Positions 2,128 through 61,023 of a DNA stretch of 64,000 bases are shown here, piece by piece. Numbering within the stretch: the stretch's first letter is position 1; every line of letters begins with the position of its first letter. The position numbers and the translations under genes were made by a program. The DNA lies in contig CAZIUH010000002.1 of NCBI GenBank assembly GCA_964542675.1, positions 98 through 64,097 on the forward strand, read 5' to 3'. The notes beneath the pieces are model-generated. The model ran no database searches and was not told the origin of the DNA. It saw only the letters and a list, made by a program, of their open reading frames with translations. This DNA comes from an uncultured Candidatus Saccharibacteria bacterium (GTDB taxonomy: Bacteria; Patescibacteriota; Minisyncoccia; Phycocordibacterales; PALSA-1337).

Positions 2128-2254
2128 TGGGAATGAATTATGGATTGTGAATTAAGAAAGCTAGCACCTATTGATTATACATAAGTAGCTAGGAAATGGA
2201 AGAAAAAAGGCGGGTGTCATAGAACATCCGCCATTTGAGCCGTTTCGCGTCATT

Positions 2255-2860
2255 TCAGCCCACCGATTCAATCTTTAGTGAAGTTATTGGAGATGGAATC
2301 GGCTTGAATGGCGATTTGGGCTTGATCTCGTGAGTTGAGGACTTTTTCGCGAGGACTTGAGCGCTTTTCACGCCGCCAGTCTGGGCGTTTAATTGTGGCA
2401 GAATACTCAAGTCAGGATGAAAATTTGCCTTGTTTTTATGCGCAACCGCTTTGTTCGGTGGATGCGCACGAGGGACGATCCCGGCCTTTTCCAACAAGAT
2501 ATAACTATCGGGCCGAGTGAATTCACTTGGATGGAAGACATGTCTCCACCAAAGTTCTGATGCGGTGAATCGTTTGTGGATTATTTTGTATTGATGGACC
2601 AATCCGCATACGCATACTCCCAGTATGTACGCGAAATACATTTTGCCAACGATATCATCATCGAAAGCGTCTGGGTCTTCCTCCATTATCTTGACTCGTT
2701 CAACCAATAGCCATCGGCCGCATTCGCATCGCCTGGTGAATTTTTTTATGAGCCGATACATTGTTGAAACCAAAAAAATAATTACGGCGATCGTGAGCCA
2801 CTGCCGTCCTGTAATATTGATTTGAATGTGCATTTTTTCTCCTATGTTTTCCAACACCAA
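2255..2860 (-). CDS. hypothetical membrane protein, one predicted TM, Cys-containing
   Basis: 201-aa ORF with a hydrophobic N-terminal segment and no recognisable family. It sits between ftsH and the ssrA scar region. Confidence 0.35.
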   Translation of the reverse strand: MVLENIGEKMHIQINITGRQWLTIAVIIFLVSTMYRLIKKFTRRCECGRWLLVERVKIMEEDPDAFDDDIVGKMYFAYILGVCVCGLVHQYKIIHKRFTASELWWRHVFHPSEFTRPDSYILLEKAGIVPRAHPPNKAVAHKNKANFHPDLSILPQLNAQTGGVKSAQVLAKKSSTHEIKPKSPFKPIPSPITSLKIESVG

Positions 2861-3007
2861 AATCTAACGGCATATTACTATTGAATATACATTTCGTCAA
2901 TATTTTTGATTACTGGATCCATAATAGTTTTAGACATCAAAAAAAACCAGCATCTAGCCGTAATTCAGAAAAAAGCGGCCCGCCATGAGCGAGCGAAGCG
3001 AGTCGAG

Positions 3008-3029
3008 TGGAGATGCTGGGAGTCGAAGC
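3008..3029 (-). repeat. direct copy of the ssrA 3' end (TGGAGATGCTGGGAGTCGAA), a tRNA-like fragment
   Basis: 21/21 nt identical to the tmRNA T-arm/acceptor 3' segment at 3183-3203. It lacks the 5' half of the T stem, so it is a fragment and not a gene. Confidence 0.6.
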
Positions 3030-3148: not shown

Positions 3149-3182
3149 AACAAAAATCACCCTTTCGGGCAGATTTTTGTTT

Positions 3183-3547
3183 GTGGAGATGCTGGGAGTC
3201 GAACCCAGGTGCAATCGAAGTTGATCGAACGATTCTACGGCGATAGAAATCTTTGAAGTTTAGAAGCCATGTTATGAAAGAAAACAAAACGCATAGCTTC
3301 GATCTCTAAGTTTCGGATAATACGACGAGAAATCGTACTACCCTACATCCAGGTAATAACGCCTATCCAGAAGGTCAGGATCCCCCTCTAGTAGACGCGC
3401 GCTTATACAAACGCGAATGCGAAGTCCTTGGCTCCGAAATACGGAGAAACAGAAGATTTAGCAATTAGGTTTTGCATCGGATTTATAAGTCGATACTGCT
3501 TACGCCGCACGAACAATAACATACGATTGTCGATGCCTTTCATCCCC
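3183..3547 (-). ncRNA. ssrA: tmRNA (transfer-messenger RNA)
   Basis: Minus-strand 5' GGGGATG pairs with 3' CATCTCC, including a G3:U70 wobble (alanine identity). T-arm CTGGG-TTCGACT-CCCAG, discriminator A. P2a-like pairing CAATCG/CGATTG. About 365 nt. Candidate tag ORFs end at TAA (...AKDFAFAFV* or ...AKPNC*). smpB lies immediately upstream on the same strand. Confidence 0.7.
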
Positions 3548-3552: not shown

Positions 3553-3623
3553 GGAATTATGAATTGTGAATGGAAGCCGAAATTGACTATATTCATAATT
3601 CCTAATTCTTAATTCATAATTCG
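3553..3623. repeat. GAATTAN heptamer-array inverted pair between smpB and ssrA
   Basis: GGAATTATGAATTGTGAATGG and TTCATAATTCCTAATTCTTAATTCATAATTCG. Confidence 0.7.
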
Positions 3624-6769: not shown

Positions 6770-8215
6770 TTAAACCTCAATGGACTGTAAATTAACTTTG
6801 TCCCCTATTTTCGGCACGACTGCTTTCACTTTCAGTTCTTCATTTATTTTCTGCGCCAAAAACATCGATGCTTTCGGCTCGCCCATGGTGACAAAAACTT
6901 GTTTCAGACGGTTTGTGGCATTAGAAACAAATCCTAGAAGATGATCACTGTCTTTATGCGCTGAATAACCGTACAATTTTTCAATACGCGCGTGAATTTG
7001 TACTTTCTGTTTGTGAATATGAACTTTTTTCGCTCCGTCAGCCAATCGCCTGCCAAGAGAACCAACTGTTTGATAGCCGACTAACAGGATCGTATTCTTG
7101 GAATCAGGCAAATATGTTTCTTCATGACCTGTAACTCTCCCGCCAACCGACATGCCTGAACCAGCCAGAATTATTTTGGCGCCTTTTATTTTATCTATGT
7201 CTCGCGATTCATTCTGGGACATGATGAATTCTAGATTTTTGAAATCAAATATATCATCACCTTTAGCTATTTGATTTCTTACATAATCATTAAAAAGGTC
7301 AGTATTTTCCGCATAAATTTTCGTCGCTTTTATCGCCATGGGAGAATCCACGAATATTGGAATTGACGGGATTTTTTTCTGTTCAACCATATTATTTAGC
7401 TCATACAAAAGGACCTGCGTGCGATCTATTGAGAAAGTTGGAATGACCAATGTCCCGGCATAAGCGATTGTTTTTTTTATTACCCTTTCGAATTCGCTCA
7501 CTCTTTGTTCCTTCGATTCATGGTTGCGGTCCCCGTAAACACTTTCCATTATTAGATAATCAATATCACCGATAGATTCCGTGTCTTGGAGTAACGGCGC
7601 CGGTGAATTGCCGAGATCTCCGGTAAATAGAATTCTAATCAGATTCGTGTCACTTCCATCTTGCGTACTTGCGCGTTTGCGTACTTGCGCACTGATCTCC
7701 ACCATCGCTGATCCGAGAATATGGCCCGCGTCTTTGAGAAGAATGGATATACCCGGGACAATCTCCAAATTTTCATGATATCGAATAGTACGCCACAGTA
7801 GAAAAACAACCCGAATATCATTCAAGTCAAATAATGGCGCGACACCGTCTTGTCTGGCTTCAAGGGCGAGAATACCAGCGGCATCCGTCAGAACCAATTC
7901 GGCAAGTTCCTTTGTTTGAGGAGTTGAATAAATGACGCCATGGAAGCCTTCCTTAACCAGTTTTGGAATGCGACCGATGTGATCGAGATGAGCATGGGTT
8001 ACAATCAGAGCTTGAATGGAAACCGGATTGTATGGAAAAGGTTCGCGATTTTTCTCTTCATCAAATCGCTCTCCTTGCATCATGCCGCAATCCACTAATA
8101 TTTTTGAATTATTCGCGAAATCATTTTCTTGACTGCCTTCACGTTCAAGTAAAAAATTTGCTCCGGTGACGGCACCGACTCCGGAACAAAAAGTTATTTG
8201 TAAAGCTTTTGACAT
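6770..8215 (-). CDS. MBL-fold metallo-hydrolase, beta-CASP/RNA-metabolising type (RNase J/CPSF-like)
   Basis: HAHLDHIGRIPKL metallo-beta-lactamase motif, about 480 aa, and a C-terminal region typical of beta-CASP nucleases. Confidence 0.65.
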   Translation of the reverse strand: MSKALQITFCSGVGAVTGANFLLEREGSQENDFANNSKILVDCGMMQGERFDEEKNREPFPYNPVSIQALIVTHAHLDHIGRIPKLVKEGFHGVIYSTPQTKELAELVLTDAAGILALEARQDGVAPLFDLNDIRVVFLLWRTIRYHENLEIVPGISILLKDAGHILGSAMVEISAQVRKRASTQDGSDTNLIRILFTGDLGNSPAPLLQDTESIGDIDYLIMESVYGDRNHESKEQRVSEFERVIKKTIAYAGTLVIPTFSIDRTQVLLYELNNMVEQKKIPSIPIFVDSPMAIKATKIYAENTDLFNDYVRNQIAKGDDIFDFKNLEFIMSQNESRDIDKIKGAKIILAGSGMSVGGRVTGHEETYLPDSKNTILLVGYQTVGSLGRRLADGAKKVHIHKQKVQIHARIEKLYGYSAHKDSDHLLGFVSNATNRLKQVFVTMGEPKASMFLAQKINEELKVKAVVPKIGDKVNLQSIEV

Positions 8216-10913: not shown

Positions 10914-13772
10914 TCATTGAATAATCGTCTCCTCCTTCTCATATTTCTTCATAATCTCCGTTTCAACATCCGCCCTTGGCCTACCGAATGTGAGGAATGA
11001 AAGTTCTTTCAGTTTATCAACCTGTTCCATGTTCCCTTTCGATCTCGGCATCGCTTGGATATTGAACGGCTTCAAAGGTTTACCATTCGCGAGTAATCGA
11101 ATATACGCGCAGAAATTATTCTGATTCACAATATCTTTCGCCGTGAATGTCGGGGCAAATTGTTTTTCCATTAACTCCGCATCCTCCGTGCCGAGACGAT
11201 ACGCCGCCATGGAGCCGACATTGCCGAAAACGGCATTTTTTATCTTATCATCAAGCTGGCCGATGAATTGGTGAGCGAGCGTGAGAGCCAGACGATATTT
11301 GCGCGCTTCGGATAGAATCGTCGCGATGGAATCCGTCGTGATATTCTGGAATTCGTCCAAATACAGGTAGAAATCCGGCATATTTTTGCCGAATGAATCC
11401 ACGCGCGATAGCGCCGCCATCAGGATTTTGCCGACTAAAATAAGTCCGATCAAATGAGAGTTGATATCGCCGAGCCTGCCCTTTGAAAGATTGACTAGTA
11501 ATATCTTCTTATTATCCATAATATCGCGCATGCTAAAAGAAGATTTTTCCTGCGCGATAATAGGTCGCATTATTTCATTCGCCAGGAATACGTCGAATTT
11601 CGACGTAATATACGGAACTACATTTGCCAATGACACTTCCCCACCGGCTTTTTCCGCGATTTCTCTCCAGAATTGAACTATAATCGGATTCTTGCATCTG
11701 GAAATTTTCAAGTCGCGAAATACTTTGTTTGACATAACGCGCGAAACATCGAGCAGAGTGCATCCGGATTCCGGATCTTCTATGACAAGACCGGTTGCGT
11801 TGCGAAAATACTGTTCAAATATTGGGCCCATAGATTCCGGTATGGCTCCGTACAATTTTTGAAAAATAGAAAACATCTCGTTCACGACAAAAGTTTTCTG
11901 TTCCGGAAAATTCTGATCATATTCGAGCATATTGAGAGCCATAGGGCGATCGACGGATGCGGGATCAAAGTAAACCAAATCCTTGAATCTTTCAGATGGT
12001 ATTGAGGCTAGAATATCGACAACATCGGAACCGTGAGGATCTATGAAACAGACGCCATTTCCCGCTCGAATATCTTGAATGATCATATTCTTGAGAAGCG
12101 TGGTTTTACCAGTTCCAGTCTGACCGATAACATAGAGATGACGCATTCGGTCTTCCGGTGCTATGAAAATATTTGTTTTCACTCCACGGTTTTCATTGAC
12201 ACCGAGTAATGTCCCCGATTCCGGAACGCCGAGCGGCGCCGGCGCCGTACCAGAAGCGCTTTGTTTCAATTGCGGCGCGGCGGGATGAATATTGCTTGCC
12301 GGGAAATGCATGCATGTCGTCAACTCCTCAAGATTCAAAATCACCTGCTCGTCCTCGTCAAAAGTGCGGAGTGAAAATTGTTCCAGAACTTCTTGCAATC
12401 TTCCGCTATTCTTACCACCGAAAATATGATGCCCGGTCCCGACCTTTTTCCATTCAATTCTATTGCCATATCCATTCTCCATCTGATTGAAACTTGATTC
12501 AAGATCATTCAGAACGCTTTGTGCCTCCGCTTCCGTAGCCGCCGAAGTCGCTATACGCAAATTGACAGAAATGAATGGACTTTTCAGCTTTCGCGTGAAC
12601 TGATCTATAATCGCCTGATCAACGGCTTGCGCCCGTTTCACTTCCGCCTCCTTTTCCTTTTCCATGGCTTTCTGGCCCTTGAAAAAATCAGTCATTCCCC
12701 TGCCTATATTGCTAATAGCCGAACGACCGACTTCTTCCAGAGCTTCTCCGATTTTCTTACCATTCCGAACTTTTTCGAGAACTTTGGTGCATTCTTTGGC
12801 ATAACCATCCTGTCTTTTTCCGACAATCATCTGTATAGCCGCGCCTTCACCCATTCGGTCAATTTTGGAAAAACCATTCAGAATCGCGTTTAGCGGATCA
12901 ATATCGAAATCTTCGTATGATTTGAGAGGATACAACGGATGTTTCGAAAGCGCGGCATAAGACACGGCGCATGCGCCGTCAGAGTTGAAAATATTGTAAT
13001 CGTCCTTGTGTTCATGGACATGACTACCGGGAAATACGGCCATGATTTGTTTTTCAAATAAATCTTCGCGCGCCGTCGGCACGGAGACGTAGAAAATGAA
13101 TTCATTACTGCCGTTCGAGTTCGCGATCTCCACGGAGAACCATGCGGGATTTTCTTTATCATCTGTAATAGAGAGCATTCCCGCATAGAATTGTTCCATG
13201 CCGGAAATGAGTTCGCTTAATTGCTTTTTTTTGTCTTCCTCACTGGCCTCCGGCAGAGACACTTCAAATAGAGTCATATGAAGTGGTTTCCATAGAGGAT
13301 CACTTTCATTCAAACCTTGAATAGAGTAACCGGAGGAAATGAATTGGACCAAGAATCGATGGAGATCGTCGTAGAGATGCGGATTATTCATTTTTTCCAC
13401 GACATGAATAGCGTTCTTTACGCCCTTTTCTTGAATAACCGCGAGGAGTTCGCTCATTTGCGCGTCATGTGTTTCAGGCGAAAGCTCCAACACTATTTCA
13501 TTCGCCTCATGATCCTTAAGCGTGTATTCCGGCGCCAAAACTTGATGAGGTTTCGCCGCCGAATAATCTTCTACCACCCGCTTAGCGACCGCGCGTTCAG
13601 TTACACTCTCCCCTTTTTTCTCCGCGGCCGAATGCCGTTCAGCCACGATCCCGCGCAATCGCGCCAATTCCTCTCCAGGATTTTTGACCGGCTCGCGTCC
13701 TTCAAATATTGTCGGGTTCATGGGTAAATTATAGCATATGTTGAACGATATCAGGATAGTTTTCTGATGCAA
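10914..13772 (-). CDS. large protein with a C-terminal P-loop NTPase resembling type IV secretion/conjugation coupling ATPases (VirD4/TraD/TraG-like); N-terminal half unknown
   Basis: HLYVIGQTGTGKTT Walker A, FIDPHGS, and LYLDEFQN...LAHQ (Walker B / HerA-TraD-like). About 450 aa of unknown soluble N-terminus. Inserted between secY and adk. Confidence 0.5.
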   Translation of the reverse strand: MHQKTILISFNICYNLPMNPTIFEGREPVKNPGEELARLRGIVAERHSAAEKKGESVTERAVAKRVVEDYSAAKPHQVLAPEYTLKDHEANEIVLELSPETHDAQMSELLAVIQEKGVKNAIHVVEKMNNPHLYDDLHRFLVQFISSGYSIQGLNESDPLWKPLHMTLFEVSLPEASEEDKKKQLSELISGMEQFYAGMLSITDDKENPAWFSVEIANSNGSNEFIFYVSVPTAREDLFEKQIMAVFPGSHVHEHKDDYNIFNSDGACAVSYAALSKHPLYPLKSYEDFDIDPLNAILNGFSKIDRMGEGAAIQMIVGKRQDGYAKECTKVLEKVRNGKKIGEALEEVGRSAISNIGRGMTDFFKGQKAMEKEKEAEVKRAQAVDQAIIDQFTRKLKSPFISVNLRIATSAATEAEAQSVLNDLESSFNQMENGYGNRIEWKKVGTGHHIFGGKNSGRLQEVLEQFSLRTFDEDEQVILNLEELTTCMHFPASNIHPAAPQLKQSASGTAPAPLGVPESGTLLGVNENRGVKTNIFIAPEDRMRHLYVIGQTGTGKTTLLKNMIIQDIRAGNGVCFIDPHGSDVVDILASIPSERFKDLVYFDPASVDRPMALNMLEYDQNFPEQKTFVVNEMFSIFQKLYGAIPESMGPIFEQYFRNATGLVIEDPESGCTLLDVSRVMSNKVFRDLKISRCKNPIIVQFWREIAEKAGGEVSLANVVPYITSKFDVFLANEIMRPIIAQEKSSFSMRDIMDNKKILLVNLSKGRLGDINSHLIGLILVGKILMAALSRVDSFGKNMPDFYLYLDEFQNITTDSIATILSEARKYRLALTLAHQFIGQLDDKIKNAVFGNVGSMAAYRLGTEDAELMEKQFAPTFTAKDIVNQNNFCAYIRLLANGKPLKPFNIQAMPRSKGNMEQVDKLKELSFLTFGRPRADVETEIMKKYEKEETIIQ

Positions 13773-13799: not shown

Positions 13800-15083
13800 T
13801 TAATACTCCCTCATCGCGACCTGGGCGTCTATCTTCTTCAAGAGATCCAGAACCACGGAAACAACGATGAGAAGCGCGGTGCCGCCGATAGCAACGGAAC
13901 GATCACCACCATTAAAAGCGGAGATAATAAGCGGTAGAATGGCAACAGTACCGAGGAAAAGCGCACCAACAAGAGTGATGCGGGTAACGATATTGGCAAT
14001 ATGATTTTGAGTATGTTCACCTGGTCTAATTCCCGGAATGAATGCGCCAGAATGTTGCAGGTTCTCGGAAATCATCTTCGGGTCGAATGTTACGGCCGTA
14101 TAGAAATACGTGAAAGCCACAACCAAGACAAAGTACATAATGCCGTAAACCCATTGATTATTCAGGAAAATAACAGCCGATGAAGCTATGCCGGAAATAG
14201 TCGTATTGGAAACGTGCGACAGAAAATTGGCGATAATTTGAGGAAAGATGAGAATCGAAAGAGCGAAGATTATGGGGATAACGCCGGCTTGATTCAAACG
14301 TAAAGGCAAATAGGTCGAAGCGCCACCATAAACTTTATTGCCACGAACTTGCTTGGCATAAGTCACAGGTACTGATCTTTCAGCTTCAGTAACATAGACA
14401 ACACCGGCAGTTACTATTACCGCAACGACGAGGACCGCAACATAGATAGGAATAGACGAAGGTCCCGCTGAAATAATTTTCTGATAGGCTTGAATAATGT
14501 CCAGAGGCAATCGCGAAACAATACCGGCAAAAATGATAAGTGATACGCCGTTACCTATACCAAATTCAGATATGAGTTCACCAAGCCACATAAGGAGCAT
14601 GGAACCAGCGGTAATAATAATCGAATTAAAGACAAGTGACGTCGTCGTAAGATGCGGTAATACATTCTGAGACTGAAGAAGCATGATAAAACCAATAGCG
14701 GAAATAAAGGAAAGAGGCACGGCTAGAAGTCGTGAATATTGTGAGAGTTTCATCCTACCCGCCTCTCCTTCCTCGTGCATGAGCGCCTTCCATTTTGGGA
14801 ACATCATGGTAAGAAGCTGAATGACGATAGAACCAGTGATAAAAGGGCCGACTCCAAGCATTACTATTGAAAGATTAGAAAGTCCGCCACCGGAAAAAAT
14901 ATTGAAAAGACTGAAAAATTGATTGGATGAAAGGAGCTTTGCCAGAGCCGCAACATCAACGCCGGGGATAGGAATGGTCGCCATGACACGAAATAATACG
15001 AGTATTCCAACGGTAAAACCAATTCTTTTCCTTAGAATTGGATCCTTGAGCGCGCTTAAGAATTTTTGCCAAAAGTTTTGCAT
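13800..15083 (-). CDS. secY: preprotein translocase subunit SecY
   Basis: 427 aa, 10 TM, GGGLSNLSIVMLGVGPFITGSIVIQLLTMMFP. Confidence 0.93.
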   Translation of the reverse strand: MQNFWQKFLSALKDPILRKRIGFTVGILVLFRVMATIPIPGVDVAALAKLLSSNQFFSLFNIFSGGGLSNLSIVMLGVGPFITGSIVIQLLTMMFPKWKALMHEEGEAGRMKLSQYSRLLAVPLSFISAIGFIMLLQSQNVLPHLTTTSLVFNSIIITAGSMLLMWLGELISEFGIGNGVSLIIFAGIVSRLPLDIIQAYQKIISAGPSSIPIYVAVLVVAVIVTAGVVYVTEAERSVPVTYAKQVRGNKVYGGASTYLPLRLNQAGVIPIIFALSILIFPQIIANFLSHVSNTTISGIASSAVIFLNNQWVYGIMYFVLVVAFTYFYTAVTFDPKMISENLQHSGAFIPGIRPGEHTQNHIANIVTRITLVGALFLGTVAILPLIISAFNGGDRSVAIGGTALLIVVSVVLDLLKKIDAQVAMREY

Positions 15084-15086
15084 AAA

Positions 15087-15698
15087 TTATTTTTTACCGG
15101 TTTCTGAAACCAAAGTTTTAGACTTTTTTACACTTGTTTTAATATCTTTTTTCACCGCAGCATTTTGAGTGGAAATTTTCGTTTTTTCAATTTTAGGCGC
15201 AGGTTCTTTTTTCCGAGCGACGATTTCCGGCACCTTCGTCATCGTAATTCCCGCTTTCAAAACAATTTCGCCTTTTGCTTCTTCAATCTTTTTCTTTGCG
15301 GATTTGGAAACTAGACAACCGGAAACTTTCAGGACCTTTTTCAATTCTCCGTCACCGAGAATTTTTACGACCGGAATTCTACCTGATACAAGCTTAATCA
15401 CGCCTTTTTCCGCGAGAATAGTCGGCGTAATAGCATCGCCTGACTTGAATATTTCTTCTATAATGCCGAGATTTACAATGACTGGCTTATCGCTCACAGG
15501 TTTATTCTGATTAACACCCCGACCGCGTAATTTCGGCATTTTCTTTATGATATCGCGCCATTCCGGACGTCTTTTGTTTCCGGCACGCGCCGATTGACCT
15601 TTGCCTCCACGGCCAGAAGTTTTACCGCGCTTGCCTCCACGAGCAACTGTCATTCTTTTTCTATTTTTATGAGTTCTTTTCAGTTGATTTGCTTGCAT
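15087..15698 (-). CDS. rplO: 50S ribosomal protein L15 (Lys-rich C-terminal extension)
   Basis: RGGKRGKTSGRGGKGQSARAG uL15 motif. Start taken at MQANQLK. The ORF extends about 60 aa beyond typical uL15. Confidence 0.85.
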   Translation of the reverse strand: MQANQLKRTHKNRKRMTVARGGKRGKTSGRGGKGQSARAGNKRRPEWRDIIKKMPKLRGRGVNQNKPVSDKPVIVNLGIIEEIFKSGDAITPTILAEKGVIKLVSGRIPVVKILGDGELKKVLKVSGCLVSKSAKKKIEEAKGEIVLKAGITMTKVPEIVARKKEPAPKIEKTKISTQNAAVKKDIKTSVKKSKTLVSETGKK

Positions 15699-15711
15699 GT
15701 TATTTAGTGTA

Positions 15712-15808
15712 AAAATTAAAACGCAAAATGACATTGTGATATGTAAAATCGTTCCGTGATGTTATTTTTATTTTTGAATTGTGATTTTTCATTTTGATTT
15801 TTGCATTA
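15712..15808. repeat. second intergenic inverted-repeat family (degenerate), rpsE–rplO spacer
   Basis: AAAATTAAAACGCAAAATGACATTGTGATATG ... TTTTTGAATTGTGATTTTTCATTTTGATTTTTGCATT. Confidence 0.55.
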
Positions 15809-16612
15809 CTTTACTACCGTCCTCCCCCTTAAAATCACCTTTGTAATCTTCGACAAATTCTCCAGGGCAACAATTGTCGCTCTCGCTATATTCACCTTGT
15901 TCTTTGAACCTGACATGATTTTGGCACAAATATCCTTAATGCCAGCAAGCTCAATAACGGCGCGAGCCGAACTGCCGGCGACAACACCACTGCCGCGCGC
16001 CGGAAAAACTTTTATGATAGCACTGCCAAATTTACCTTCCACAGCATGGGGAATAATCATTTGCGGCGAAAGTGAAACTTTTATAAGGTGTTTTTTTGCT
16101 TCGCGCACGGCTTTCTCTATGGAAAGCGCCGTATCAGAACCTTTACCAAGCCCGACACCGACACGTCCTTTATGGTCACCGACCACGGCCGCAACACTGA
16201 AAGTGAATCTGCGTCCGCCGGCAGCCACGCGAGTCACACGGCGAATATCAATAGTCTTGAAATCAAATTCTGGTTTGACGCGCTCCCTGCTTTCTCCACC
16301 GCGTCCACTATCCCTGCCTCTGCCACCTTTCGGAACATCTGAACCTCGCGTACCGCCTCTCCTGGCGGAATCACGCATACGTCTGCCTGGAGTTATTTTA
16401 CCGCGCGCGACAATTGGAACGACAACTGGCGTGGCAACAGAAATAATTTCGCCATCTGCAATATTGGGAATGACGATGTCATCAGCACCAACAGATCCCG
16501 TGATTTCTTCAGCGACAATGGATTCCATGGCTTCTTCGTCTGTCATAATAGGCAAAGCGACAGCGCTTGTATTTGCGTCTTCTTTATTGATTTTTGTATT
16601 ATCGTCTTTCAT
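15806..16612 (-). CDS. rpsE: 30S ribosomal protein S5 (N-terminal extension)
   Basis: RVTRVAAGGRRFTFSVAAVVGDHKGRVGVGLGKGSDTALSIEKA...GSGVVAGSSARAVIELAGI. There is no rpmD (L30) between rpsE and rplO. Confidence 0.9.
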   Translation of the reverse strand: MKDDNTKINKEDANTSAVALPIMTDEEAMESIVAEEITGSVGADDIVIPNIADGEIISVATPVVVPIVARGKITPGRRMRDSARRGGTRGSDVPKGGRGRDSGRGGESRERVKPEFDFKTIDIRRVTRVAAGGRRFTFSVAAVVGDHKGRVGVGLGKGSDTALSIEKAVREAKKHLIKVSLSPQMIIPHAVEGKFGSAIIKVFPARGSGVVAGSSARAVIELAGIKDICAKIMSGSKNKVNIARATIVALENLSKITKVILRGRTVVK

Positions 16613-16613
16613 A

Positions 16614-16645
16614 TTCCTAATTCATAATTCTTAATTCATAATTCA
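16614..16645. repeat. GAATTAN heptamer array (rplR–rpsE spacer)
   Basis: TTCCTAATTCATAATTCTTAATTCATAATTC. Confidence 0.7.
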
Positions 16646-16999
16646 TTAGAAAATCAATCCTCCCTCTCTAGCCCCTTCCGCAACCAATTTGATCTTCCCC
16701 GCGTACAAATATCCTCCTCTATCGAATACAACCTTTTTTAGCTTAGCTTCCAATGCCTTTTTCGCAATACCCAAACCAACTTCCTTGGCTTTTTCCGACA
16801 TGGTCTTGCCTTTCGCTTTCCTTGAATCAAACGAAGTCAAAGTATTTCCTTTCGTATCATCAATCACTTGAGCATATATATATTTATGAGATTTGAAAAC
16901 AGAAAGCCTCGGCATTTCTTTTGTACCGAAAATTTTCGCCCTGACTCTTCTATGACGTCTGTTGAATTTCTCGTTATTTATTTGAATTAAGCTTTTCAT
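16646..16999 (-). CDS. rplR: 50S ribosomal protein L18
   Basis: [36 protein letters not shown]. Confidence 0.9.
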
Positions 17000-17056
17000 T
17001 GTATTATTTGATTGAATTATATTTTGTTGTTTATTGTGTACAATTCATAATTCCTT

Positions 17057-17590
17057 TTACGCCGCCTTTTTACCTTGTTTCCTTCTGATAATTTCATCGG
17101 AGTATCGAATACCTTTTCCCAGATATGGCTCCGGCTTCTTCGTTGCCCTTACAATCGCGGCGAATTGTCCAACTTTTTCGGTATCAATTCCCGAAACAAT
17201 AATAGTGCTCTTCTCCGTCGTTACTTTCAAATCAGCAGGAATGGGAATATTGACAGGATGTGAGAAACCGACAGCCAAAACCAAATCCTTACCTCGTACA
17301 TCTGCTTTGAAACCGATGCCTTCTATGATCAATTTCTTTTCATATGGCTTATTGACGCCTGCGATCATATTTTTCAAATGCGAAGCATATGTACCCCAAA
17401 GCGCTTTATTTTGAAGACTTTCATGACCCAGAGTCAGAACAACGGCGTCTTTTGTGATTTCAAATTTGATATCATCACGAAAATTCTTTTTGAGTTCACC
17501 GAGAGGACCTTTGACGGTCATAACGCCGCCGGAATAAGAGACTTCGGTTTTCGGTGGTATTTGTATGGGTTTTTTTGCGATTCTGGACAT
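17057..17590 (-). CDS. rplF: 50S ribosomal protein L6
   Basis: MSRIAKKPIQIPPKTEVSYSGGVMTVKGPLGEL. Start taken at the internal Met. Confidence 0.9.
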   Translation of the reverse strand: MSRIAKKPIQIPPKTEVSYSGGVMTVKGPLGELKKNFRDDIKFEITKDAVVLTLGHESLQNKALWGTYASHLKNMIAGVNKPYEKKLIIEGIGFKADVRGKDLVLAVGFSHPVNIPIPADLKVTTEKSTIIVSGIDTEKVGQFAAIVRATKKPEPYLGKGIRYSDEIIRRKQGKKAA

Positions 17591-17618
17591 GTTTTTTATA
17601 ATCGGAAAAATCAAACGC

Positions 17619-18005
17619 TTACCAAATCTTGAATAATATCTCTCCGCCAACCTTCATTTTTTTCGCGTCTGTATCCGTTAATATTCCTTTAGGGGTTGAG
17701 TAGATAACATTACCGTACCCACTTTTGAATGAACGGATATCACGAGCCTTCTGATACATTCGCTTTGACAGTTTTGAGATCCTCTGAACGCCGTGTACGC
17801 GCGGCTCATCGTTAAAATAAACAAGTCCAAGTAACAGTTCCTTATTTTCTTTGTCCTTTTCAACAGATGAGAGATAACCTGCTTTCTTCAAAAGATGCGC
17901 GACGTTCTCTGCAAACTTGGAATCCTGAACAACAACAACGGTCTTACCGGCATCACTGCCGTTTTTGATTCGAATTATTAAATCTGAAATTGGATCTGTT
18001 ACCAT
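17619..18005 (-). CDS. rpsH: 30S ribosomal protein S8
   Basis: MVTDPISDLIIRIKNG... Confidence 0.9.
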   Translation of the reverse strand: MVTDPISDLIIRIKNGSDAGKTVVVVQDSKFAENVAHLLKKAGYLSSVEKDKENKELLLGLVYFNDEPRVHGVQRISKLSKRMYQKARDIRSFKSGYGNVIYSTPKGILTDTDAKKMKVGGEILFKIW

Positions 18006-18131
18006 AAAATTAAAATACGTAAAACATATTGGAAAATAATAAATTAAAATTTAATTATCTGTTACGATTATGTTATTCATTTTTGCATTGTGATTTTGCA
18101 TTTTATTTTTTAATCTTTTGCGTTAAACATA

Positions 18132-18317
18132 TTACCAAGATGATTTCTTAACGCCCGGAATCATGCCTTCATTGGCGAATTCTCGGAAACAAATGCGGCA
18201 AATATCGAAATCACGCATATAGCCATGCTTTCGGCCACAGCGGAAACAACGTCTAACAACGCGTGATTTGAATTTCGGTTTTTTTTTCGATCTAGCTATT
18301 ACCGCTTTTGTCGCCAT
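18132..18317 (-). CDS. rpsZ: 30S ribosomal protein S14 type Z (zinc-binding)
   Basis: 61 aa, [23 protein letters not shown]. Confidence 0.9.
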
Positions 18318-21572: not shown

Positions 21573-21579
21573 AATAGTT

Positions 21580-21648
21580 GAATTATGAATTACGAATATA
21601 CATTCTACTTCATTGTTTTATATTCATAATTCGTAATTCTTAATTCAC
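21580..21648. repeat. GAATTAN heptamer-array inverted pair (rpsQ–rplN spacer)
   Basis: GAATTATGAATTACGAATA ... TTCATAATTCGTAATTCTTAATTC. Confidence 0.7.
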
Positions 21649-25387: not shown

Positions 25388-25473
25388 ATTGAATTGAATT
25401 ATAAATTAATTATGGATAAACTCATATCTTCTTGTTCTTTTTTCTTAATTCGTAATTCTTAATTCGTAATTCT
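25388..25473. repeat. GAATTAN heptamer-array inverted pair (rplV 3' end–rpsC spacer), partly coding
   Basis: TTGAATTGAATTATAAATTAATTATGG ... CTTAATTCGTAATTCTTAATTCGTAATTC. The latter encodes the L22 C-terminal tail. Confidence 0.65.
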
Positions 25474-25808
25474 TTTGTTTCCTTGGGCGCAAGCACAATG
25501 TTAACATGACTTGTCCTCTTCTTGATCGGATGCGCCGAACCTCTAGATACCGGCATACTGCGCCTCAAGACGAATCCCTGATCGACGCGAATTTCCTTTA
25601 CATAAAGACCGGTATTTTCTATCTTGAAATTATTCTTGGCGTTGGCGATGGCGGAATCGAGGAGATCACCGAGCGGATGTCTCGCCTTCTTATCGGCATG
25701 CTCCAAAATGAGTTTAGCGTCAATAACATTCTTGCCGCGAATCATATCTGCCACAATGCGAACCTTGCGAGGAGATATTCTATAATTTTTGAGCGAGGCG
25801 ATGATCAT
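25422..25808 (-). CDS. rplV: 50S ribosomal protein L22
   Basis: ISPRKVRIVADMIRGKNV... The C-terminal tail (KELRIKNYELRKKNKKI) is encoded by the heptamer repeat element. Confidence 0.88.
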   Translation of the reverse strand: MIIASLKNYRISPRKVRIVADMIRGKNVIDAKLILEHADKKARHPLGDLLDSAIANAKNNFKIENTGLYVKEIRVDQGFVLRRSMPVSRGSAHPIKKRTSHVNIVLAPKETKELRIKNYELRKKNKKI

Positions 25809-45940: not shown

Positions 45941-46492
45941 TTATACTCTCCTTATGTCAAATCTAAGTTTATGCTTCGGTGATATTGGTTTGTCCATAAA
46001 TCGCTTCATATGTGAATATAATTCAGTAAGTCCTATCCCCTGCCGAATCTGTTCCAGCTCCAATTTATCAACTTTATTCGCAAGATCTTTGTTATTTGAG
46101 ATCATTCGACGAAGTTTGACGAATGCGCGCATGATGAAAATATTCATTTGCACAGCCTTATCACTATTCAGAACTGAGGAAAGCATGGCCACACCAAGCT
46201 CGGTAAAGACATATGGCAATTGATGAGAAAATCTCCGAACAGAAAGGTGGTCGCAAATTGCGACCACCTTATTCTTTTCATCGGCAGTTAATCTAAACAT
46301 AAAGTCATTTGGAAACCTAGCTATATTACGTTTTACTTGTTCATTCAATCATTTTGTTGGTATCTGATAAAGTTCTGCCAAGTCAAAATCAAGCATGACT
46401 TTCTGTCCACGGATCAAATGAATCCGTCGTTCTATGAATGCTGGAGTAACTGGCATAATCAAACTTGTTTCAATTATTTTAACTTCTTTCAT
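45941..46492 (-). pseudogene. ORF6N-domain (KilA-N/antirepressor-like) gene interrupted by an in-frame TGA
   Basis: Upstream frame MKEVKIIETSLIMPVTPAFIERRIHLIRGQKVMLDFDLAELYQIPTK, then TGA (46351-46349), then LNEQVKRNIARFPNDFMFRLT... in the same frame. Together they span the complete ORF6N domain. Confidence 0.6.
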
Positions 46493-47274: not shown

Positions 47275-47329
47275 AAATTATGAATTACGAATTAACACAA
47301 GAAAATTTATTCATAATTCTTAATTCGAC
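47275..47329. repeat. GAATTAN heptamer-array inverted pair (rpsL–rpsG spacer)
   Basis: AAATTATGAATTACGAATTAAC ... TTCATAATTCTTAATTCGAC. Confidence 0.7.
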
Positions 47330-47754: not shown

Positions 47755-47996
47755 ATTATTTTTAGACGCAAGTGCGCAAGGCACAGGTACGCAGGTGGCA
47801 AGTTTGAATTCTTCACCGCTTTTAGTTTGAGTTATGGTCCTTTTTAGCCTTGAATATGATTCCCGGCTAATTCTTGACCGACCAAACGCGATTACTCATT
47901 CTTGCCCGTAAATTACATATCCCGAATAATAGTGGGACAGTGGGGATACATTAACATCTGAATAATAATAATGCAAGCCATTTAGGTTCCTTGATA

Positions 47997-51393: not shown

Positions 51394-51512
51394 GAAGAGT
51401 CATTTTACCCATCACATGATAAAATCCCGATAAAAAAAGTATGAATTTTTGATAAAAAATGTATGAAAAAATGATAAAAAAAACCTCAAGAAAGTATGAA
51501 TTTTCTAGAAAA

Positions 51513-52202: not shown

Positions 52203-53977
52203 GACTGCATAATAACTTCTACAATCCTAAGTCGCAACTCTGCCCTATTCATGAACATAGATTTTTCCAGAGACGCCACAAGATCGATTACCCTATTTCC
52301 TTCAAAATTTTTCGCCCATACGCTTTCGGCGCCGAAAAACGAAATTGCCGGAATCTTCTCACCATTTTTTTTCTTGAAAATAAGTTCAATATGATCGTTT
52401 CCTTTTCCAAATCGGCGTACCGAGACCGGCATTACATTTTTGAACAGGAAAATTGGCTTCGGATTTCCTTTCCCGAAAGGTGCCAATCTATCAATATCTT
52501 TGAATAGATTCCAATTCACTGAATCAAGCATAAGTTCCGCGTCAATATAATTTTCATCTAAATCTAATAACTGTCCAGAAATCCCTTCCCCATTCAAGTT
52601 TTTTTGATTCATAATTCTTAATTCATAATTCTTTGCAAATGCCTCATTCAAATATTTATCCAGAAAATGTATTTGCTCACCACTGACTGTGAATCCACCC
52701 GAATGCCTATGACCACCCATTTGCGTGAACACTCCTTCAGGCATCGCTTTCATGATTTCCATCATATTTGTTCGTCCTTCCGAACGGCAAGATCCCTTGA
52801 TCGCGTTATCGCCGTCACGACCCCAGAGGAATACGGGACGGTTGAATTCCTGCGCACATGTGTTGGCGACTAATCCCAATAATGACGGCCGCCAGGCGGG
52901 ATTTCCTAGAACAATCACATTCGGGGGTGAATTTATTTCAATTTCACCAAATCGTTCTTTAATAATCTTTCTTACTTCCTTGACCAGAGCCGCGACAACT
53001 CCCTTGCGTTCACTATTGATACCATCAAGATGCGTGACATAATGATTCGCATCTTCATCATTGTCGGCTGATAATAGGTTAAACGCGTCCATAGGCACGC
53101 CCATTCGAGACGCGGCATTGATACGGGGCGTTATCATAAAACCAACATCATCTTCGGTCAGATATTTCTGATTAATTCGTAATTTTTCAAGAAGTCGTTT
53201 CAAACCTTTTCTTTGACTTTTGCGTAAAACCGACATGCCGTAATACGCGAATACTCTATTTTCACCGGTAAGTGGCACCATATCCGAAAGAGTGGCGATA
53301 CCGACCATATCAAGAAACCATTTTTCATGCCCTTTTTTCAAACCAAATCGATCTTTCGCGAGAATTGCTTGAATAAGCTTGAAAGCCACGGCCGAACCAC
53401 AAATATTTTTGTCAGGATACGCGCAATTGGTTTGTTTATGATCAATAATCGCGTACGCCATTGGTAATTCAGTAGGCGGTTCATGATGGTCAGTAATTAT
53501 TACGTCCATAGTCAATTTGTTCGCACACGCGACTGCCTTCATATCGGAAATTCCGCAATCAACTGTTATCAAAATTTTTACACCCTCACTCGCCAACCGT
53601 TTAACAGCTTCCACATTCAAGCCAAAACCTTCGTCATGGCGATGCGGAATGTAAATAGAAAAATTCTTGTAACCAATTCTAGCGAAAAAGTCGTGAAAGA
53701 TGACGGCGCCGGGTATGCCATCGGCGTCATAGTCGGAATATATGGCTATTTTTTCATTACCTTTTATCGCATGAATGATTCTCCCGACAGCTTTTTCCGC
53801 GTCTTTTAATAGAAATGGATCATGGATATCGCGTTCATATTCCGGTTCCAAGAATTTGTTCGCGTCCGCGCTCGTCGTGATACCACGATGGAACAATAAA
53901 TGCGAAAGTAGTCGCGAATATCCGACCAGCTGTGCCTGCTCTTCATTCGAGAGTTGACGGTGAATCGAGTATTGCAT
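52199..53977 (-). CDS. recJ: single-stranded-DNA-specific exonuclease RecJ
   Basis: DHH motifs ([14 protein letters not shown]) and DHHA1. 592 aa. Confidence 0.85.
52608..52631. repeat. GAATTAN heptamer array inside the recJ coding sequence
   Basis: TTCATAATTCTTAATTCATAATTC, translated in recJ as ...NYELRIMN... Confidence 0.6.
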
Positions 53978-58472: not shown

Positions 58473-59152
58473 ATATTATCCTTCAAATTACGAAGAGAAA
58501 CTTGCGCCGAATAAGTAATCGGCATCGGTGATTTTTTCACGTCAGTATCTATCGTAATATTGATTCTAACAAGTCTGATCGCGTAAATCGCCGGTGGATA
58601 TGAAAGCGGTGATCCATTGCCATCGTATGAACTGTTGAAATATTCAAAAAGTGCGGATGATGTCGCGTTTCTGACGCCTGCGACGATAATATTCACGCTT
58701 TCACCGGACAAATCATATGTTTGCGAGGGCTCTGAGGGCTCGGTAATCCCGCGATATAAAGTCGTGGACGCGAGATAATATCGGATTTGTTCCTTCATGC
58801 CATTCCCGTTGATGTCAGAATAGAATGAAATGGAACTCGTAGAAACAGAGATGATTGGATATGAGCCGTTGGATGACGGTGACATTGTGCGCAATTCTCT
58901 ACTCATGTATTTCAAAATATTCGTCGCGTCCTGAATATTCGTGAGCGCAACATGCGAATGTCGATTGTAATCGAGAACGTTGTATTGGAACGTGGATACG
59001 GCGATCATAACGATAACCATGATGGAAATAACGACAACAATTTCAACAAGCGTCATGCCACGCTCTTTTCCGCTTGAAAATCCGATCATTGAATGTAATT
59101 TATTTATCATTTTATTTTTTCCCCAAGGTTCAACCCTCGGGATATATTTCAC
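58469..59152 (-). CDS. prepilin-type N-terminal cleavage/methylation domain protein (minor pilin/pseudopilin)
   Basis: G|MTLVEIVVVISIMVIVMIAV class III signal. The start is probably an internal Met. Confidence 0.7.
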   Translation of the reverse strand: MKYIPRVEPWGKNKMINKLHSMIGFSSGKERGMTLVEIVVVISIMVIVMIAVSTFQYNVLDYNRHSHVALTNIQDATNILKYMSRELRTMSPSSNGSYPIISVSTSSISFYSDINGNGMKEQIRYYLASTTLYRGITEPSEPSQTYDLSGESVNIIVAGVRNATSSALFEYFNSSYDGNGSPLSYPPAIYAIRLVRINITIDTDVKKSPMPITYSAQVSLRNLKDNI

Positions 59153-60939
59153 GGTCCCATCAATATTTGTGTTTCTCGCCAGTTCAAATCCGAGCCGATC
59201 GTAACTGAAGTTAAATTGGTAGAATAACCCGATTTTGACACCTCAATATTATAATCCCGCGCCAATAGACCCGTAAAAATAACTTGACCGGAGGGCACGC
59301 AATTTGAAGTGTAAGTAAAAGCAATATCGGAAATATTCGGCGAGACCGTTTCATCATCGGTGGCGAGATAGACGCGATATCTGGCATATCTGTCAGCATT
59401 ATGAACAGAGTTCAAAGAAGAATTTGAAGCGAGATAATAACTCGCGTCCGTGCCGTCAGGACCCTTGAATTTCCAAGTTGTCGTTGCCGTATTCGTGGCA
59501 TTCGTGGCAAATTGCATTCGCACGCTATTTATCCCCGCAAGAATCGGTTGATCTATAGGCGACCAAATCAGAGAAAAGAAATTACTGATTGAACCCGTGT
59601 CAAAGGTGGATGATTCAAGAATACCGCTTTGATTGTATTCATCAAACGCGCCGCGCAATCTGATCTGTCCAGCCGTCGTCGTAACATCAATGTTACCGTC
59701 ATCAGAAAAATATTTCGCTTTGTTGGAAAAATCCACTTCTCCAGAACCAGAAGACCAATCCGTTTGTGAGAGATATCCTTGTCCCGTTACCAATGTTCTT
59801 CCGGATTCTTCACCTTGATACAATCTGACGGTCGCGCCGGAAAGTGGCAATTGAGTGGTACTATCTTTGACCGTCACAACCAGACCTTTTTCTTCCTTCG
59901 GCGTCACTATCATCTGAATATTTTGTGAACCACCGGGATTCACGGCCACGAAATTCAATGGATTTATTCCTGACAAGAATCGTGTCGCATCATTCGAGGA
60001 AATGTTGTATGAATCCCATTCCATGGAGTTCAAGTCGAAAATCCCGGAGCTATTCGTCGTCATATTCTCGCTATATTTCGGAATATTTTCACCGATTTGT
60101 TTTGAACCGACCATCTTGAATCCAAAATTTGAAGCTGGTTCGCATGTTGGCGATACGGCGGAAAAATGGATAGTACTCAATCGATCGATCGCGAAACTCA
60201 CTTGCGTTACCCGTTGAAGCAAGATCGTTGAATCTGGTTTCGTAGGATTTGGATTGGATGGATCGCTTATCGGATATGTTCTGTCAGTGGAATAGCCACT
60301 TTTCGAAACAATAATCCTATAAGCATTGTCTCCGGGTGGAACGTCGACGAGTTGTAGCATGCCATTTGCGTCGGTTACATCATCGATCACAATAGTCGTA
60401 CTTGTCGCCACATTCACGACATGCACGGAAGCACCTTGAACAGGTTGGCCATTTGCGTCGAAAACGCGAATGAACAGCGCGCCGTTGACCGAGGCTGTTT
60501 CCAAATTTTTTGGCGCGACTTGCCCGACAAGCGTGATCGGCTGCATATTCTTGCAACCATCGCATGAAACTTCGACTTGAACCAGTTTATTATCCGCCGG
60601 AGAAAGATCACTCGGCGTACCACCGATGATGCCGTCGAAAGGTAGATCAATATTGCGTACTGTCGTTGTCACCGTGAATGTGATTCCTCCCCTCGTCAAG
60701 TTTTGTATGCGTGGAATATTTCCATTCGGAATACCGCCCACCACCCCAACCACGGCATAAGGCATATTCCGCGCGATTTCGAATTGTTCATTAGCGAGGT
60801 CCAATGCCAGCACTTTATTTTGATTGAGCGCGATAAGTTGGAACAAAGAAACATACGCGTTGTACGCGGCAATAGCGATAATCACGAAAACCGCCGTACC
60901 GACCAGAACTTCAACTAATGTGAATCCTTTTTTATTCAT
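59149..60939 (-). CDS. large type IV pilin-like protein (596 aa)
   Basis: MNKKGFTLVEVLVGTAVFVIIAIAAYNAY prepilin N-terminus, followed by a roughly 560-aa Thr/Ser/Gly-rich beta domain. Confidence 0.7.
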   Translation of the reverse strand: MNKKGFTLVEVLVGTAVFVIIAIAAYNAYVSLFQLIALNQNKVLALDLANEQFEIARNMPYAVVGVVGGIPNGNIPRIQNLTRGGITFTVTTTVRNIDLPFDGIIGGTPSDLSPADNKLVQVEVSCDGCKNMQPITLVGQVAPKNLETASVNGALFIRVFDANGQPVQGASVHVVNVATSTTIVIDDVTDANGMLQLVDVPPGDNAYRIIVSKSGYSTDRTYPISDPSNPNPTKPDSTILLQRVTQVSFAIDRLSTIHFSAVSPTCEPASNFGFKMVGSKQIGENIPKYSENMTTNSSGIFDLNSMEWDSYNISSNDATRFLSGINPLNFVAVNPGGSQNIQMIVTPKEEKGLVVTVKDSTTQLPLSGATVRLYQGEESGRTLVTGQGYLSQTDWSSGSGEVDFSNKAKYFSDDGNIDVTTTAGQIRLRGAFDEYNQSGILESSTFDTGSISNFFSLIWSPIDQPILAGINSVRMQFATNATNTATTTWKFKGPDGTDASYYLASNSSLNSVHNADRYARYRVYLATDDETVSPNISDIAFTYTSNCVPSGQVIFTGLLARDYNIEVSKSGYSTNLTSVTIGSDLNWRETQILMGP

Positions 60940-61023
60940 AATTCATAATTCGTAATTCAAAGGTTTATCAAAAAAAAGTTTGTGACCTAGTATTATGAAT
61001 TATGAATTATGAATTATGAATTA
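60935..61023. repeat. GAATTAN heptamer-array inverted pair (pilC–pilin spacer), with a 4x tandem TGAATTA
   Basis: TTCATAATTCATAATTCGTAATTC ... TATTATGAATTATGAATTATGAATTATGAATTAA. Confidence 0.75.

Follow-up and report, generated by a model that had tools for sequence, protein, structure and literature searches.

Heptamer-repeat arrays at the cistron boundaries of a Patescibacteria ribosomal-protein cluster and their likeness to intervening-sequence stem-loops

Tandem heptamer repeats have been known in bacteria since 1990, and they have no accepted origin or function. A 64-kb stretch of DNA (contig CAZIUH010000002.1; hereafter the window) raises the question of what such repeats are and how they come to stand at the boundaries between genes. 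Here, short arrays of the unit GAATTAN lie mostly as inverted pairs, several of them between the genes of a long ribosomal-protein cluster. The window is approximately the reverse complement of European Nucleotide Archive contig ERZ27248937:k141_361643, has a GC content of 42% and holds nearly all of its genes on the minus strand. The best matches of its L22 protein are labelled 'Patescibacteria group' or 'Candidatus Paceibacterota' or come from metagenome-assembled genomes (MAGs) of Parcubacteria, and the host of the arrays is well supported as a Patescibacteria/Paceibacterota genome. It is also well supported that the arrays belong to a heptamer-repeat family of many bacterial phyla, which they represent locally. 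We give about an even chance to a more specific reading, in which the inverted pairs are stem-loops without an open reading frame (ORF), similar to the intervening sequences (IVS) of rRNA or to repetitive extragenic palindromes (REP), that are probably tolerated or processed at the RNA level.

A preliminary description of this DNA listed nine array loci. GAATTAN or NTAATTC units are present at all nine coordinates, although the arrays at 2131-2160 and 17041-17056 are degenerate, with no more than two recognisable units each. The hexamer of the unit is constant and the seventh base is free. The repeat family is also non-random, as comparison with composition models shows. Ten runs of at least two exact units are observed against 0.02, 0.02 and 0.18 expected under Markov models of order 1, 3 and 5, and the seven runs of at least three units compare with none in 300 simulations. 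A strict period-7 detector finds seven arrays in the whole window, all of the GAATTAN family. The arrays are a genuine dispersed repeat family. They are no assembly artefact, since arrays of identical sequence occur in contigs from at least five independently assembled samples. Copy number does not vary in five to six assemblies, a comparison of low power because the contigs are clonal (99.98-100% identical). An Rfam scan of the window matched only tmRNA and placed no known RNA family over the arrays.

Read in the mRNA sense, as throughout Table 1, all nine loci belong to the minus strand, and eight of them are intergenic or at gene ends. Four have the form (GAATTAN)n-loop-(NTAATTC)n, between smpB and tmRNA, S17 and L14, L22 and S3, and S12 and S7. 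The others comprise one pair of opposite polarity (between pilC and a pilin-like gene), one marginal pair (between L6 and L18), two solo arrays and an in-frame array in recJ. Of the six inverted pairs that had been proposed, five are therefore clear (A2, A5, A6, A7 and A9) and the sixth, at 17014-17056, amounts to a marginal hairpin of 8 bp. Each of the five clear pairs folds into an AU-rich stem of 18-28 bp with interruptions (-9.9 to -28.5 kcal/mol; z -2.3 to -7.1 against dinucleotide shuffles) around a loop of 10-31 nt unrelated to the others. They span the whole gap from the upstream stop codon to the start of the next gene. Positions and folds thus bear out the earlier view that the paired copies are AU-rich hairpins lying exactly between the cistrons of polycistronic units.

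The fit to the genes is close. The S17-L14 pair fills its spacer; the first unit of its 5' arm supplies the S17 TGA stop and its 3' arm ends 7-10 nt before the L14 ATG. Its innermost unit is deviant, GAATATA being paired with TATATTC, and the sequence is identical in six independent assemblies. The pilC pair also fills its spacer, with the pilC TAA stop in the first unit of the 5' arm and the pilin ATG in the last unit of the 3' arm. The pair A2 separates the smpB stop codon (3629) from tmRNA, whose 5' end is at 3547, and the rpsL-rpsG pair is identical in five assemblies. At the L22-S3 boundary, the 5' arm is translated in frame as the L22 tail ELRIKNYELRK, the stop codon (25422-25424) lies in the loop, and the degenerate 3' arm ends 7 nt before the S3 ATG. 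Among the other loci, A3 occupies the entire 33-nt spacer between rplR (L18) and rpsE (S5), A4 lies directly 3' of the rplF (L6) stop, and A1 is in the ftsH 5' leader, ending 3 nt before the ATG at 2127 and preceded by a terminator-like hairpin and a TATAAT. The recJ array falls in the hypervariable RecJ linker between the DHHA1 and OB domains.

Table 1. Coordinates of the GAATTAN arrays and of other features mentioned in the text
Label	Sequence	Coordinates	Strand	Feature	Fold
A1	window	2131..2160	-	degenerate solo array, mRNA sense CTTTCTTAATTCACAATCCATAATTCATTC	none (z +0.8)
A2	window	3553..3623	-	inverted pair; 5' arm 3591-3623, (GAATTAN)x4.5; 3' arm 3553-3571	-21.2 kcal/mol, z -4.1
A3	window	16613..16645	-	solo array TGAATTATGAATTAAGAATTATGAATTAGGAAT	no hairpin (z -0.4)
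A4	window	17014..17056	-	degenerate: AAGGAATTATGAATTG ... TATAATTC	marginal 8-bp hairpin
A5	window	21580..21648	-	inverted pair, rpsQ (S17)-rplN (L14); 5' arm 21620-21648; 3' arm 21580-21600	20-bp stem, -17.9 kcal/mol, z -3.2
A6	window	25388..25474	-	inverted pair, rplV (L22)-rpsC (S3); 5' arm 25442-25474; 3' arm 25388-25413	z -2.3
A7	window	47275..47329	-	inverted pair, rpsL (S12)-rpsG (S7) spacer; 5' arm 47306-47329; 3' arm 47275-47295	-14.2 kcal/mol, z -4.0
A8	window	52604..52633	-	solo array in frame in recJ, AAGAATTATGAATTAAGAATTATGAATC = K-N-Y-E-L-R-I-M-N	
A9	window	60931..61024	-	opposite-polarity inverted pair; 5' arm 60990-61024, (NTAATTC)x5; 3' arm 60931-60958, (GAATTAN)x3.5	stem ~28 bp, -28.5 kcal/mol, z -7.1
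	window	3181-3547		tmRNA	
	window	23469-24071	-	EcoRI-family restriction endonuclease gene	
	window	22199-23476	+	D12-class N6-adenine methyltransferase gene	
	window	10914-13772; 18444-20220; 26445-34535; 37197-38441; 41488-43500; 45941-46300		non-ribosomal interruptions	
	window	15806-16612; 25818-26168; 35909-36385; 39581-39994		long ribosomal proteins	
	window	7660-7693; 47767-47803		octamer arrays (GCGCAAGT)n, one in the RNase J-like gene, one upstream of rpsL	
	L121	490-525		octamer GCGCAAGT array read as AQVRK, forming the L22 tail where the window has a GAATTAN array	
	window	15699-15805; 18006-18131; 24595-24699		second hairpin family, ~7-nt rhythm	
	window	51429-51482		A-rich 22-nt tandem repeat, ~2.5 copies, just 3' of the RNase H gene	
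	L137	12334-12405		similar 22-nt repeat, 3.3 copies, equivalent place	
	L025	540-1010		NTAATTC arrays 3' of a PF05635 gene, in a ~100-bp unit	
	L024	1200-1760; 3030-3570		distant PF05635 enclosures (these three contigs include a viral copy with an 8-nt AATTTGTA array)	
	L111	4100-4800		distant PF05635 enclosure	
	L454	1450-1950		distant PF05635 enclosure	

The codon content of the unit is consistent with this placement. Three NTAATTC units always present TAA in all three frames, and three units of GAATTAT, GAATTAA or GAATTAG present TGA, TAA or TAG, respectively, in every frame. (GAATTAT)3 also makes an ATG available in every frame. The coding copies escape these stops through the choice of the seventh base, which is C, A, C, A in the L22 units (giving a tail that reads ...KELRIKNYELRKKNKKI before the stop) and T, A, T in the stop-free RecJ units. 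Both in-frame copies, in the rplV tail and in recJ (NYELRI), are present as first noted. For annotation, the odd C-terminal tail of L22 and the NYELRI peptide in the RecJ linker are explained as read-through of arrays, and the element supplies stop and start codons of essential genes.

The arrays do not supply Shine-Dalgarno (SD) motifs to several starts, as had been thought. Only rpsE receives AGGA from an array, and SD motifs are scarce genome-wide: no more than a handful of 66 genes have GGAGG, GGAG or AGGA within 20 nt of the start. In many first genes the ATG follows a TATAAT by 6-8 nt (e.g. 4148, 8565, 26445, 32254, 56037), a spacing that suggests widespread leaderless transcripts. A scan of 15000-26500 for sigma-70-like promoters and intrinsic terminators found none coincident with the arrays. 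Intrinsic (Rho-independent) terminators were rejected as an identity for the arrays, whose stems are AU-rich and have no T-run after them.

How might such elements behave in the cell? If they are IVS-like or REP-like stem-loops, their arms would be transcribed as part of polycistronic mRNAs, where base-pairing would give AU-rich duplexes of 18-28 bp with interruptions. Each duplex would have its foot at the stop codon of the upstream gene and at, or immediately before, the start of the downstream one. Since an array carries its own punctuation (three-frame stops and an ATG), it could occupy a cistron boundary and leave the genes on either side neither fused nor truncated, and the same built-in codons would mean that arrays are tolerated only at gene boundaries or in permissive frames. 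Duplexes of 18-28 bp are of the established size for RNase III substrates. By analogy with IVS stems, the array duplexes are likely to be cut by this enzyme, and such cutting would segment or stabilise operon transcripts. Alternatively, the duplexes would couple initiation at the downstream gene to translation of the upstream one. The arrays would lengthen and shorten by slippage, and arms built of repeats could still pair after a register shift of 7 nt. Elements of this kind would be recent and dispensable rather than conserved regulators.

Comparison with relatives bears on their age. The nearest are the Hainich groundwater contigs L121-L124 and L137 and the Joint Genome Institute contig L138, with 78-83% protein identity and the same gene order. 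The hairpins are absent from the orthologous spacers of these relatives, some of which hold different repeats. The S17-L14 spacer is 72 nt in the window and 38 nt and repeat-free in L121, and in L123 the genes overlap. The pilC-pilin spacer is 81 nt in the window and 9 nt in L137. The L22 tail is extended through the array in the window, where the closest homologues end in ...APKK or ...APREKM. At the L22-S3 site, in place of the GAATTAN pair, L121 has an octamer array, (GCGCAAGT)n, read as AQVRK, and L123 has a 109-nt inverted repeat with a 7-nt AAAAATG rhythm. Neither the C-terminus of S17 nor that of PilC (VIA-stop and LV[N/D]AV-stop) differs from those of the relatives, the stop now lying within the first unit of an array. 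Because the orthologous spacers are 9 nt or 38 nt long, overlap or hold other repeats, this comparison identifies the arrays as recent insertions or expansions at the lineage level, at sites that repeatedly host short-unit repeats, and not as conserved regulatory structures.

The RecJ linker qualifies this picture. The site of the in-frame GAATTAN array holds a decayed remnant, GAATTAC-GAATTCA-GAAT (NELRI), in L137, a relative at 78% identity, and an octamer array, (AAAGATTG)n, in L138. The closer RecJ homologues P0123 and P0124 have neither the remnant nor that octamer array. Judged from these sequences, the decayed remnant shows array change over longer times. The proposal of lineage-specific insertion therefore stands for the L22 tail and most spacers; the recJ segment is not unique to the window, and for it the proposal holds only within a small clade.

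Other repeats occupy similar positions. The octamer of the L121 L22 tail also forms two arrays in the window (Table 1). A second hairpin family (AAAAATC AAAATGA AAAATGA CAATG ... and its inverse) lies in the S5-L15, S14-S8 and S3-L16 spacers, and relatives carry near-identical arms in other spacers (L22-S3 in L123, upstream of rpsH in L121), so this family is dispersed across species.

The GAATTAN arrays had been described as specific to this genome, a view that does not survive a wider search. A scan for (GAATTAN)3GAATTA in one genome per GTDB species returned at least 119 stretches and indicated more than 119 species genomes with (GAATTAN)4; about 13 phyla are among the matches listed: Bacteroidota, Ignavibacteriota, Cyanobacteriota (Nostoc, Calothrix, Microcystis, Rivularia and others), Lentisphaerota, Spirochaetota, Bacillota, Chloroflexota, Acidobacteriota, Armatimonadota, Planctomycetota, Verrucomicrobiota, Pseudomonadota and Desulfobacterota. 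One MAG of Campbellbacteria, which belong to the candidate phyla radiation (CPR), is also among them. In these listed matches all four bases occur at the seventh position, and of the arrays of at least four units 27% are accompanied by an inverted partner no more than 250 nt distant, most often at 6-50 nt. Even inside one genome the loops vary, as in the three hairpins of L070. Viral contigs hold at least 120 further GAATTAN stretches.

Repeat-translation artefacts aside, only one protein family, PF05635, stood out beside the arrays of the 119 genome loci listed. At three of these loci (L025, L074 and L089), inverted GAATTAN arrays directly enclose an ORF of 120 aa that matches PF05635 ('23S rRNA-intervening sequence protein', E = 3e-27), TIGR02436 ('four helix bundle protein') and PDB 2RLD. 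A search of metagenome contigs with an alignment of the array-enclosed proteins gave 80 loci, and at 54 of them a period-7 array lies no more than 200 nt from the PF05635 ORF. Inverted arrays stand on both sides of the ORF at 25 of the 73 loci with sufficient flanks. About half of the flanking arrays are GAATTAA, GAATTAC, GAATTAT or GAATTAG, and the others are related or different heptamers. Array density is 2.80 per kb near the ORF and 0.16 per kb more than 400 nt away at the same loci, a 17-fold difference; periods of 5, 6 and 8-11 nt show no enrichment near the ORFs of the 80 loci. The polarity is nearly fixed. (GAATTAN)n ends 1-30 nt before the start codon and (NTAATTC)n overlaps or follows the stop, an arrangement seen on both sides at 16 loci and, one-sided, at 20, with a single locus in the reverse arrangement.

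The unit need not be GAATTAN. Three distant members of the family found by chance (22-30% identity) are enclosed by inverted arrays of GAATTTA, GTACGAA and CACAGTN, the last with about 15 units per side (Table 1). Array enclosure is therefore a property of the PF05635 gene family and not of one repeat sequence. Sampling of distant PF05635 sub-families in viral contigs found nothing. In L025 ('Bacterium BMS3Bbin03'), the NTAATTC arrays 3' of the PF05635 gene sit in a unit of about 100 bp that is present in five tandem copies. A literature search found no description of these repeat strings and none of a general association between PF05635 and heptamers, and the general enclosure of PF05635 genes by heptamer arrays is apparently previously undescribed.

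PF05635 is, to our knowledge, a large family of unknown function that has been studied only in rRNA intervening sequences and, distantly, as Avd of diversity-generating retroelements. Period- and polarity-specific enclosure of its genes, together with ORF-less stems between the cistrons of a minimal groundwater Patescibacteria genome, offers a testable link between two puzzles. The window copies look like ORF-less versions of the PF05635-enclosing stem-loop cassette. A bolder extension, tentative and on balance improbable, is that the GAATTAN hairpins are non-autonomous, ORF-less derivatives of an unrecognised, horizontally spreading cassette, whose PF05635 protein (Avd-like, a pentameric four-helix bundle) would bind, protect or propagate arrays in trans. 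If this were true, the STRR and TAACTGA repeats of Cyanobacteria, Bacteroidota and Beggiatoaceae, 23S rRNA intervening sequences and operon hairpins would be one protein-plus-repeat system that reaches Patescibacteria. PF05635 ORFs are present in rRNA insertions of CPR bacteria (bioRxiv 10.1101/2024.02.27.582315).

Several observations weigh against the window pairs being IVS-like or REP-like stem-loops with ties to such a cassette. Three unpaired arrays show no fold, and no RNase III gene is seen on this contig. The PF05635 profile has no match in the window or in the readable loci of the relatives, so that the link to the IVS cassette rests on shared architecture and unit sequence and not on co-occurrence here. 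Elsewhere, a PF05635 ORF stands beside only about 1-3% of GAATTAN arrays, and the 80 metagenome loci are a biased sample, being relatives (55-69% identity) of proteins first found through GAATTAN. Control heptamers matched in composition likewise occur as arrays in viral contigs (52 and 64 stretches, with at least 120 for GAATTAN); the GAATTAN unit is favoured there, at least twofold commoner than the controls, yet not unique. Finally, the order of the seventh bases is no more complementary between arms than in within-arm shuffles (0.74 vs 0.78), although their composition agrees between the arms of one locus (0.79 vs 0.44 for arms swapped between loci). The seventh-base pattern argues against strong selection for perfect pairing and is better matched by local homogenisation.

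We rank IVS-like or REP-like stem-loops first, ahead of neutral slippage, TAACTGA-type translation control, a transposable element and a DNA-level or restriction role, in that order. The neutral explanation, which we consider unlikely although it leads the rivals, is that the arrays are simple sequence repeats (SSRs) formed by slippage in AT-rich spacers, functionless and unrelated to any element, with the inverted pairs as by-products of, for example, local template switching. According to the account of Mrazek 2007 given in PMC4679880, long SSRs are most often built of heptanucleotide units, for which a 7-nt polymerase footprint has been proposed. The other short-unit arrays of the relatives, at the same spacers and in the recJ linker, speak for slippage, as do the control heptamer arrays and the lack of a pairing signal in the seventh-base order. 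Slippage does not readily explain why one hexamer core accounts for all seven strict period-7 arrays in 64 kb, or why units vary at the seventh base, whereas pure slippage copies exactly. Inverted pairs at five of nine loci, with feet that coincide with stop and start codons, are also contrary to it, as is the constant copy number, low-powered as the clonal assemblies make it. GAATTAN moreover encloses PF05635 ORFs with fixed polarity across phyla.

Less probable again is control of translation as proposed for TAACTGA repeats. Single-stranded GAAUUAN would be bound by a ribosome component or by S1, a cold-shock protein (one per heptamer), a CsrA-like protein or a PF05635 pentamer and would drive or regulate initiation without an SD, and pairing with the inverse arm would tie initiation to upstream translation. 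The genome is nearly SD-less, and arrays end 0-14 nt before the starts of rpsE, rplN, rpsC, rpsG, ftsH and the pilin gene, whose ATG is within the stem. The TAACTGA repeats of ribosomal-protein operons are a close parallel, and (GAATTAN)n stands 1-30 nt ahead of PF05635 starts. However, A2 precedes an RNA gene, tmRNA, and no cistron. Both polarities occur upstream of starts (TAATTC-type at ftsH, GAATTA-type at rpsE and the pilin gene), the orthologous genes of the relatives manage without arrays, and most SD-less genes of the window have none.

A miniature inverted-repeat transposable element (MITE), or a mobile element of the type formed by REPs and REP-associated tyrosine transposases (RAYTs), mobilised in trans by a transposase, is very unlikely. 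The dispersed, intergenic, lineage-specific copies with terminal inverted repeats have the look of one, and their occurrence in many phyla suggests horizontal spread. Nevertheless, the five pairs have unrelated loops, which align no better than shuffled sequence; the arms are not flanked by target-site duplications; arrays differ freely in arm length and number of units, and solo arrays are common; and no transposase or RAYT gene is among the window ORFs scanned. The suggestion of a mobile mini-element, in the classical sense, is not supported, for want of a conserved core, a target-site duplication and related loops. A DNA-level signal, either sites for nucleoid or replication proteins or GAATTA-versus-GAATTC decoy or star sites tied to restriction-modification (R-M) genes, scarcely merits belief, since the EcoRI-family endonuclease and D12 adenine methyltransferase genes (22199-24071) and a unit one base off GAATTC are outweighed by a GAATTC count that is not depleted in the window (37 observed vs 46 +/- 6.5 expected), by arrays in hundreds of unrelated genomes and viruses, and by a placement that follows the codon boundaries of transcripts and no DNA landmark.

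The genes around the arrays have peculiarities of their own. The window begins with ftsH, smpB and tmRNA, followed by infC-rplT, an RNase J-like gene, ndk, map, adk, a TraG-like gene and secY. After secY comes the long str/S10/spc ribosomal-protein cluster, with several non-ribosomal interruptions, and then tuf, fusA and rpsG-rpsL. Then come comEC, rnhA and recJ, followed by pgk and tpi and by the pilus genes pilB and pilC along with pilin-like ones. The 22-nt repeat beside the RNase H gene has a counterpart in L137 (Table 1).

The interruptions are diverse. A TraG/VirD4-like ATPase lies between adk and secY, and a Pif1 helicase with a 63-aa ORF between rplE and rpsN. An MFS transporter separates rplD from rplC, a 670-aa peptidoglycan-binding protein separates tuf from fusA, and fusA is separated from rpsG by an ORF6N protein. 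A 9-kb block between rpsS and rplB encodes VanY, SWIB, a histidine kinase, MacB/ABC/MFP components, a DEAD helicase and a tRNA-binding protein. The R-M genes stand between rplP and rpmC, inside the cluster, with a local GC of 0.34. The arrangement of the interruptions is partly common to the relatives L121 and L123. Some ribosomal proteins are also unusually long: S5 has 268 aa with its Pfam domain from residue 119, a length common to L121; S19 has 116 aa; L23 has 158 aa with its domain from residue 73; and S10 has 137 aa with its domain from residue 41. Their domain positions point to N-terminal extensions or mis-set starts.

How does the element compare with known systems? Among the closest are the TAACTGA heptamer direct repeats of marine Beggiatoaceae, Cyanobacteria and Bacteroidetes (MacGregor 2015, PMC4679880). 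These are intergenic, lie a few nt from start codons with no SD, occur within ribosomal-protein operons and overlap upstream stops because all three frames are closed; horizontal spread is suspected, and S1, Csp, CsrA-like or mobile repeat-binding proteins have been proposed as partners (PMC4679880). Like them, the window arrays are tandem 7-nt units above expectation, in 2-6 copies per set, overwhelmingly intergenic, abutting or overlapping the upstream stop and the downstream start with no SD between. The likeness extends to the ribosomal-protein operons, to a forward orientation that shuts all three frames, to rare in-ORF copies in tolerant frames and to a patchy distribution in Cyanobacteria and Bacteroidetes that suggests horizontal spread. 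In contrast, the unit here is GAATTAN with a free seventh position, which rejects membership of the TAACTGA family in the strict sense. TAACTGA sets are nearly all direct (1 inverted in 170), whereas the window loci are mostly inverted hairpin pairs; the host here is a member of the Patescibacteria; and an association with PF05635 is not reported for TAACTGA. For heptanucleotide repeats more broadly, the cyanobacterial STRR, reportedly described by Mazel in 1990, offer a further comparison.

The stems resemble those of IVS. In Coxiella burnetii, the 23S rRNA IVS contains an S23p (PF05635) ORF, and RNase III excises this IVS at a 28-bp stem of terminal inverted repeats (Warrier 2016, PMC4990558). 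Two to three tandem GACAGAT heptamers, strain-variable in number, stand just before its ORF start, and RNase III cuts at the first repeat (PMC4990558). In both systems, terminal inverted repeats pair into a stem longer than 20 bp that encloses a variable interior, and the window has five stems of 18-28 bp built from heptamers. Tandem heptamers of variable copy number in the 5' part of the stem, before the ORF start, are an IVS feature, as is excision by RNase III, and IVS are regarded as selfish and dispensable. Unlike IVS, the window copies are ORF-less, with loops of only 10-31 nt, and lie in mRNA spacers and before tmRNA rather than in rRNA helices 25 or 45, the window holding no rRNA; the Coxiella unit, GACAGAT, is also different.

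The early suggestion of an element resembling REPs or bacterial interspersed mosaic elements (BIMEs), or of an RNA-processing signal, holds as a fair functional analogy, given the hairpins and the lineage-specific insertions, and fails at the conserved core and the RAYT, neither of which is seen. Both kinds are short, dispersed, imperfect palindromes between operon genes or at 3' ends, and REP/BIME hairpins, once transcribed, can stabilise or segment mRNA. REPs, however, are conserved GC-rich units of 20-40 nt with a cognate RAYT transposase, whereas the arms in the window are built of AU-rich tandem repeats, vary in length and lack a conserved palindrome core. Membership of the REP/BIME group was rejected on the AU-rich arms and on a Pfam scan of the window ORFs that showed no Y1-transposase domain. 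Placed among these systems, the element joins the known heptanucleotide intergenic repeats and the IVS-type stems as a variant.

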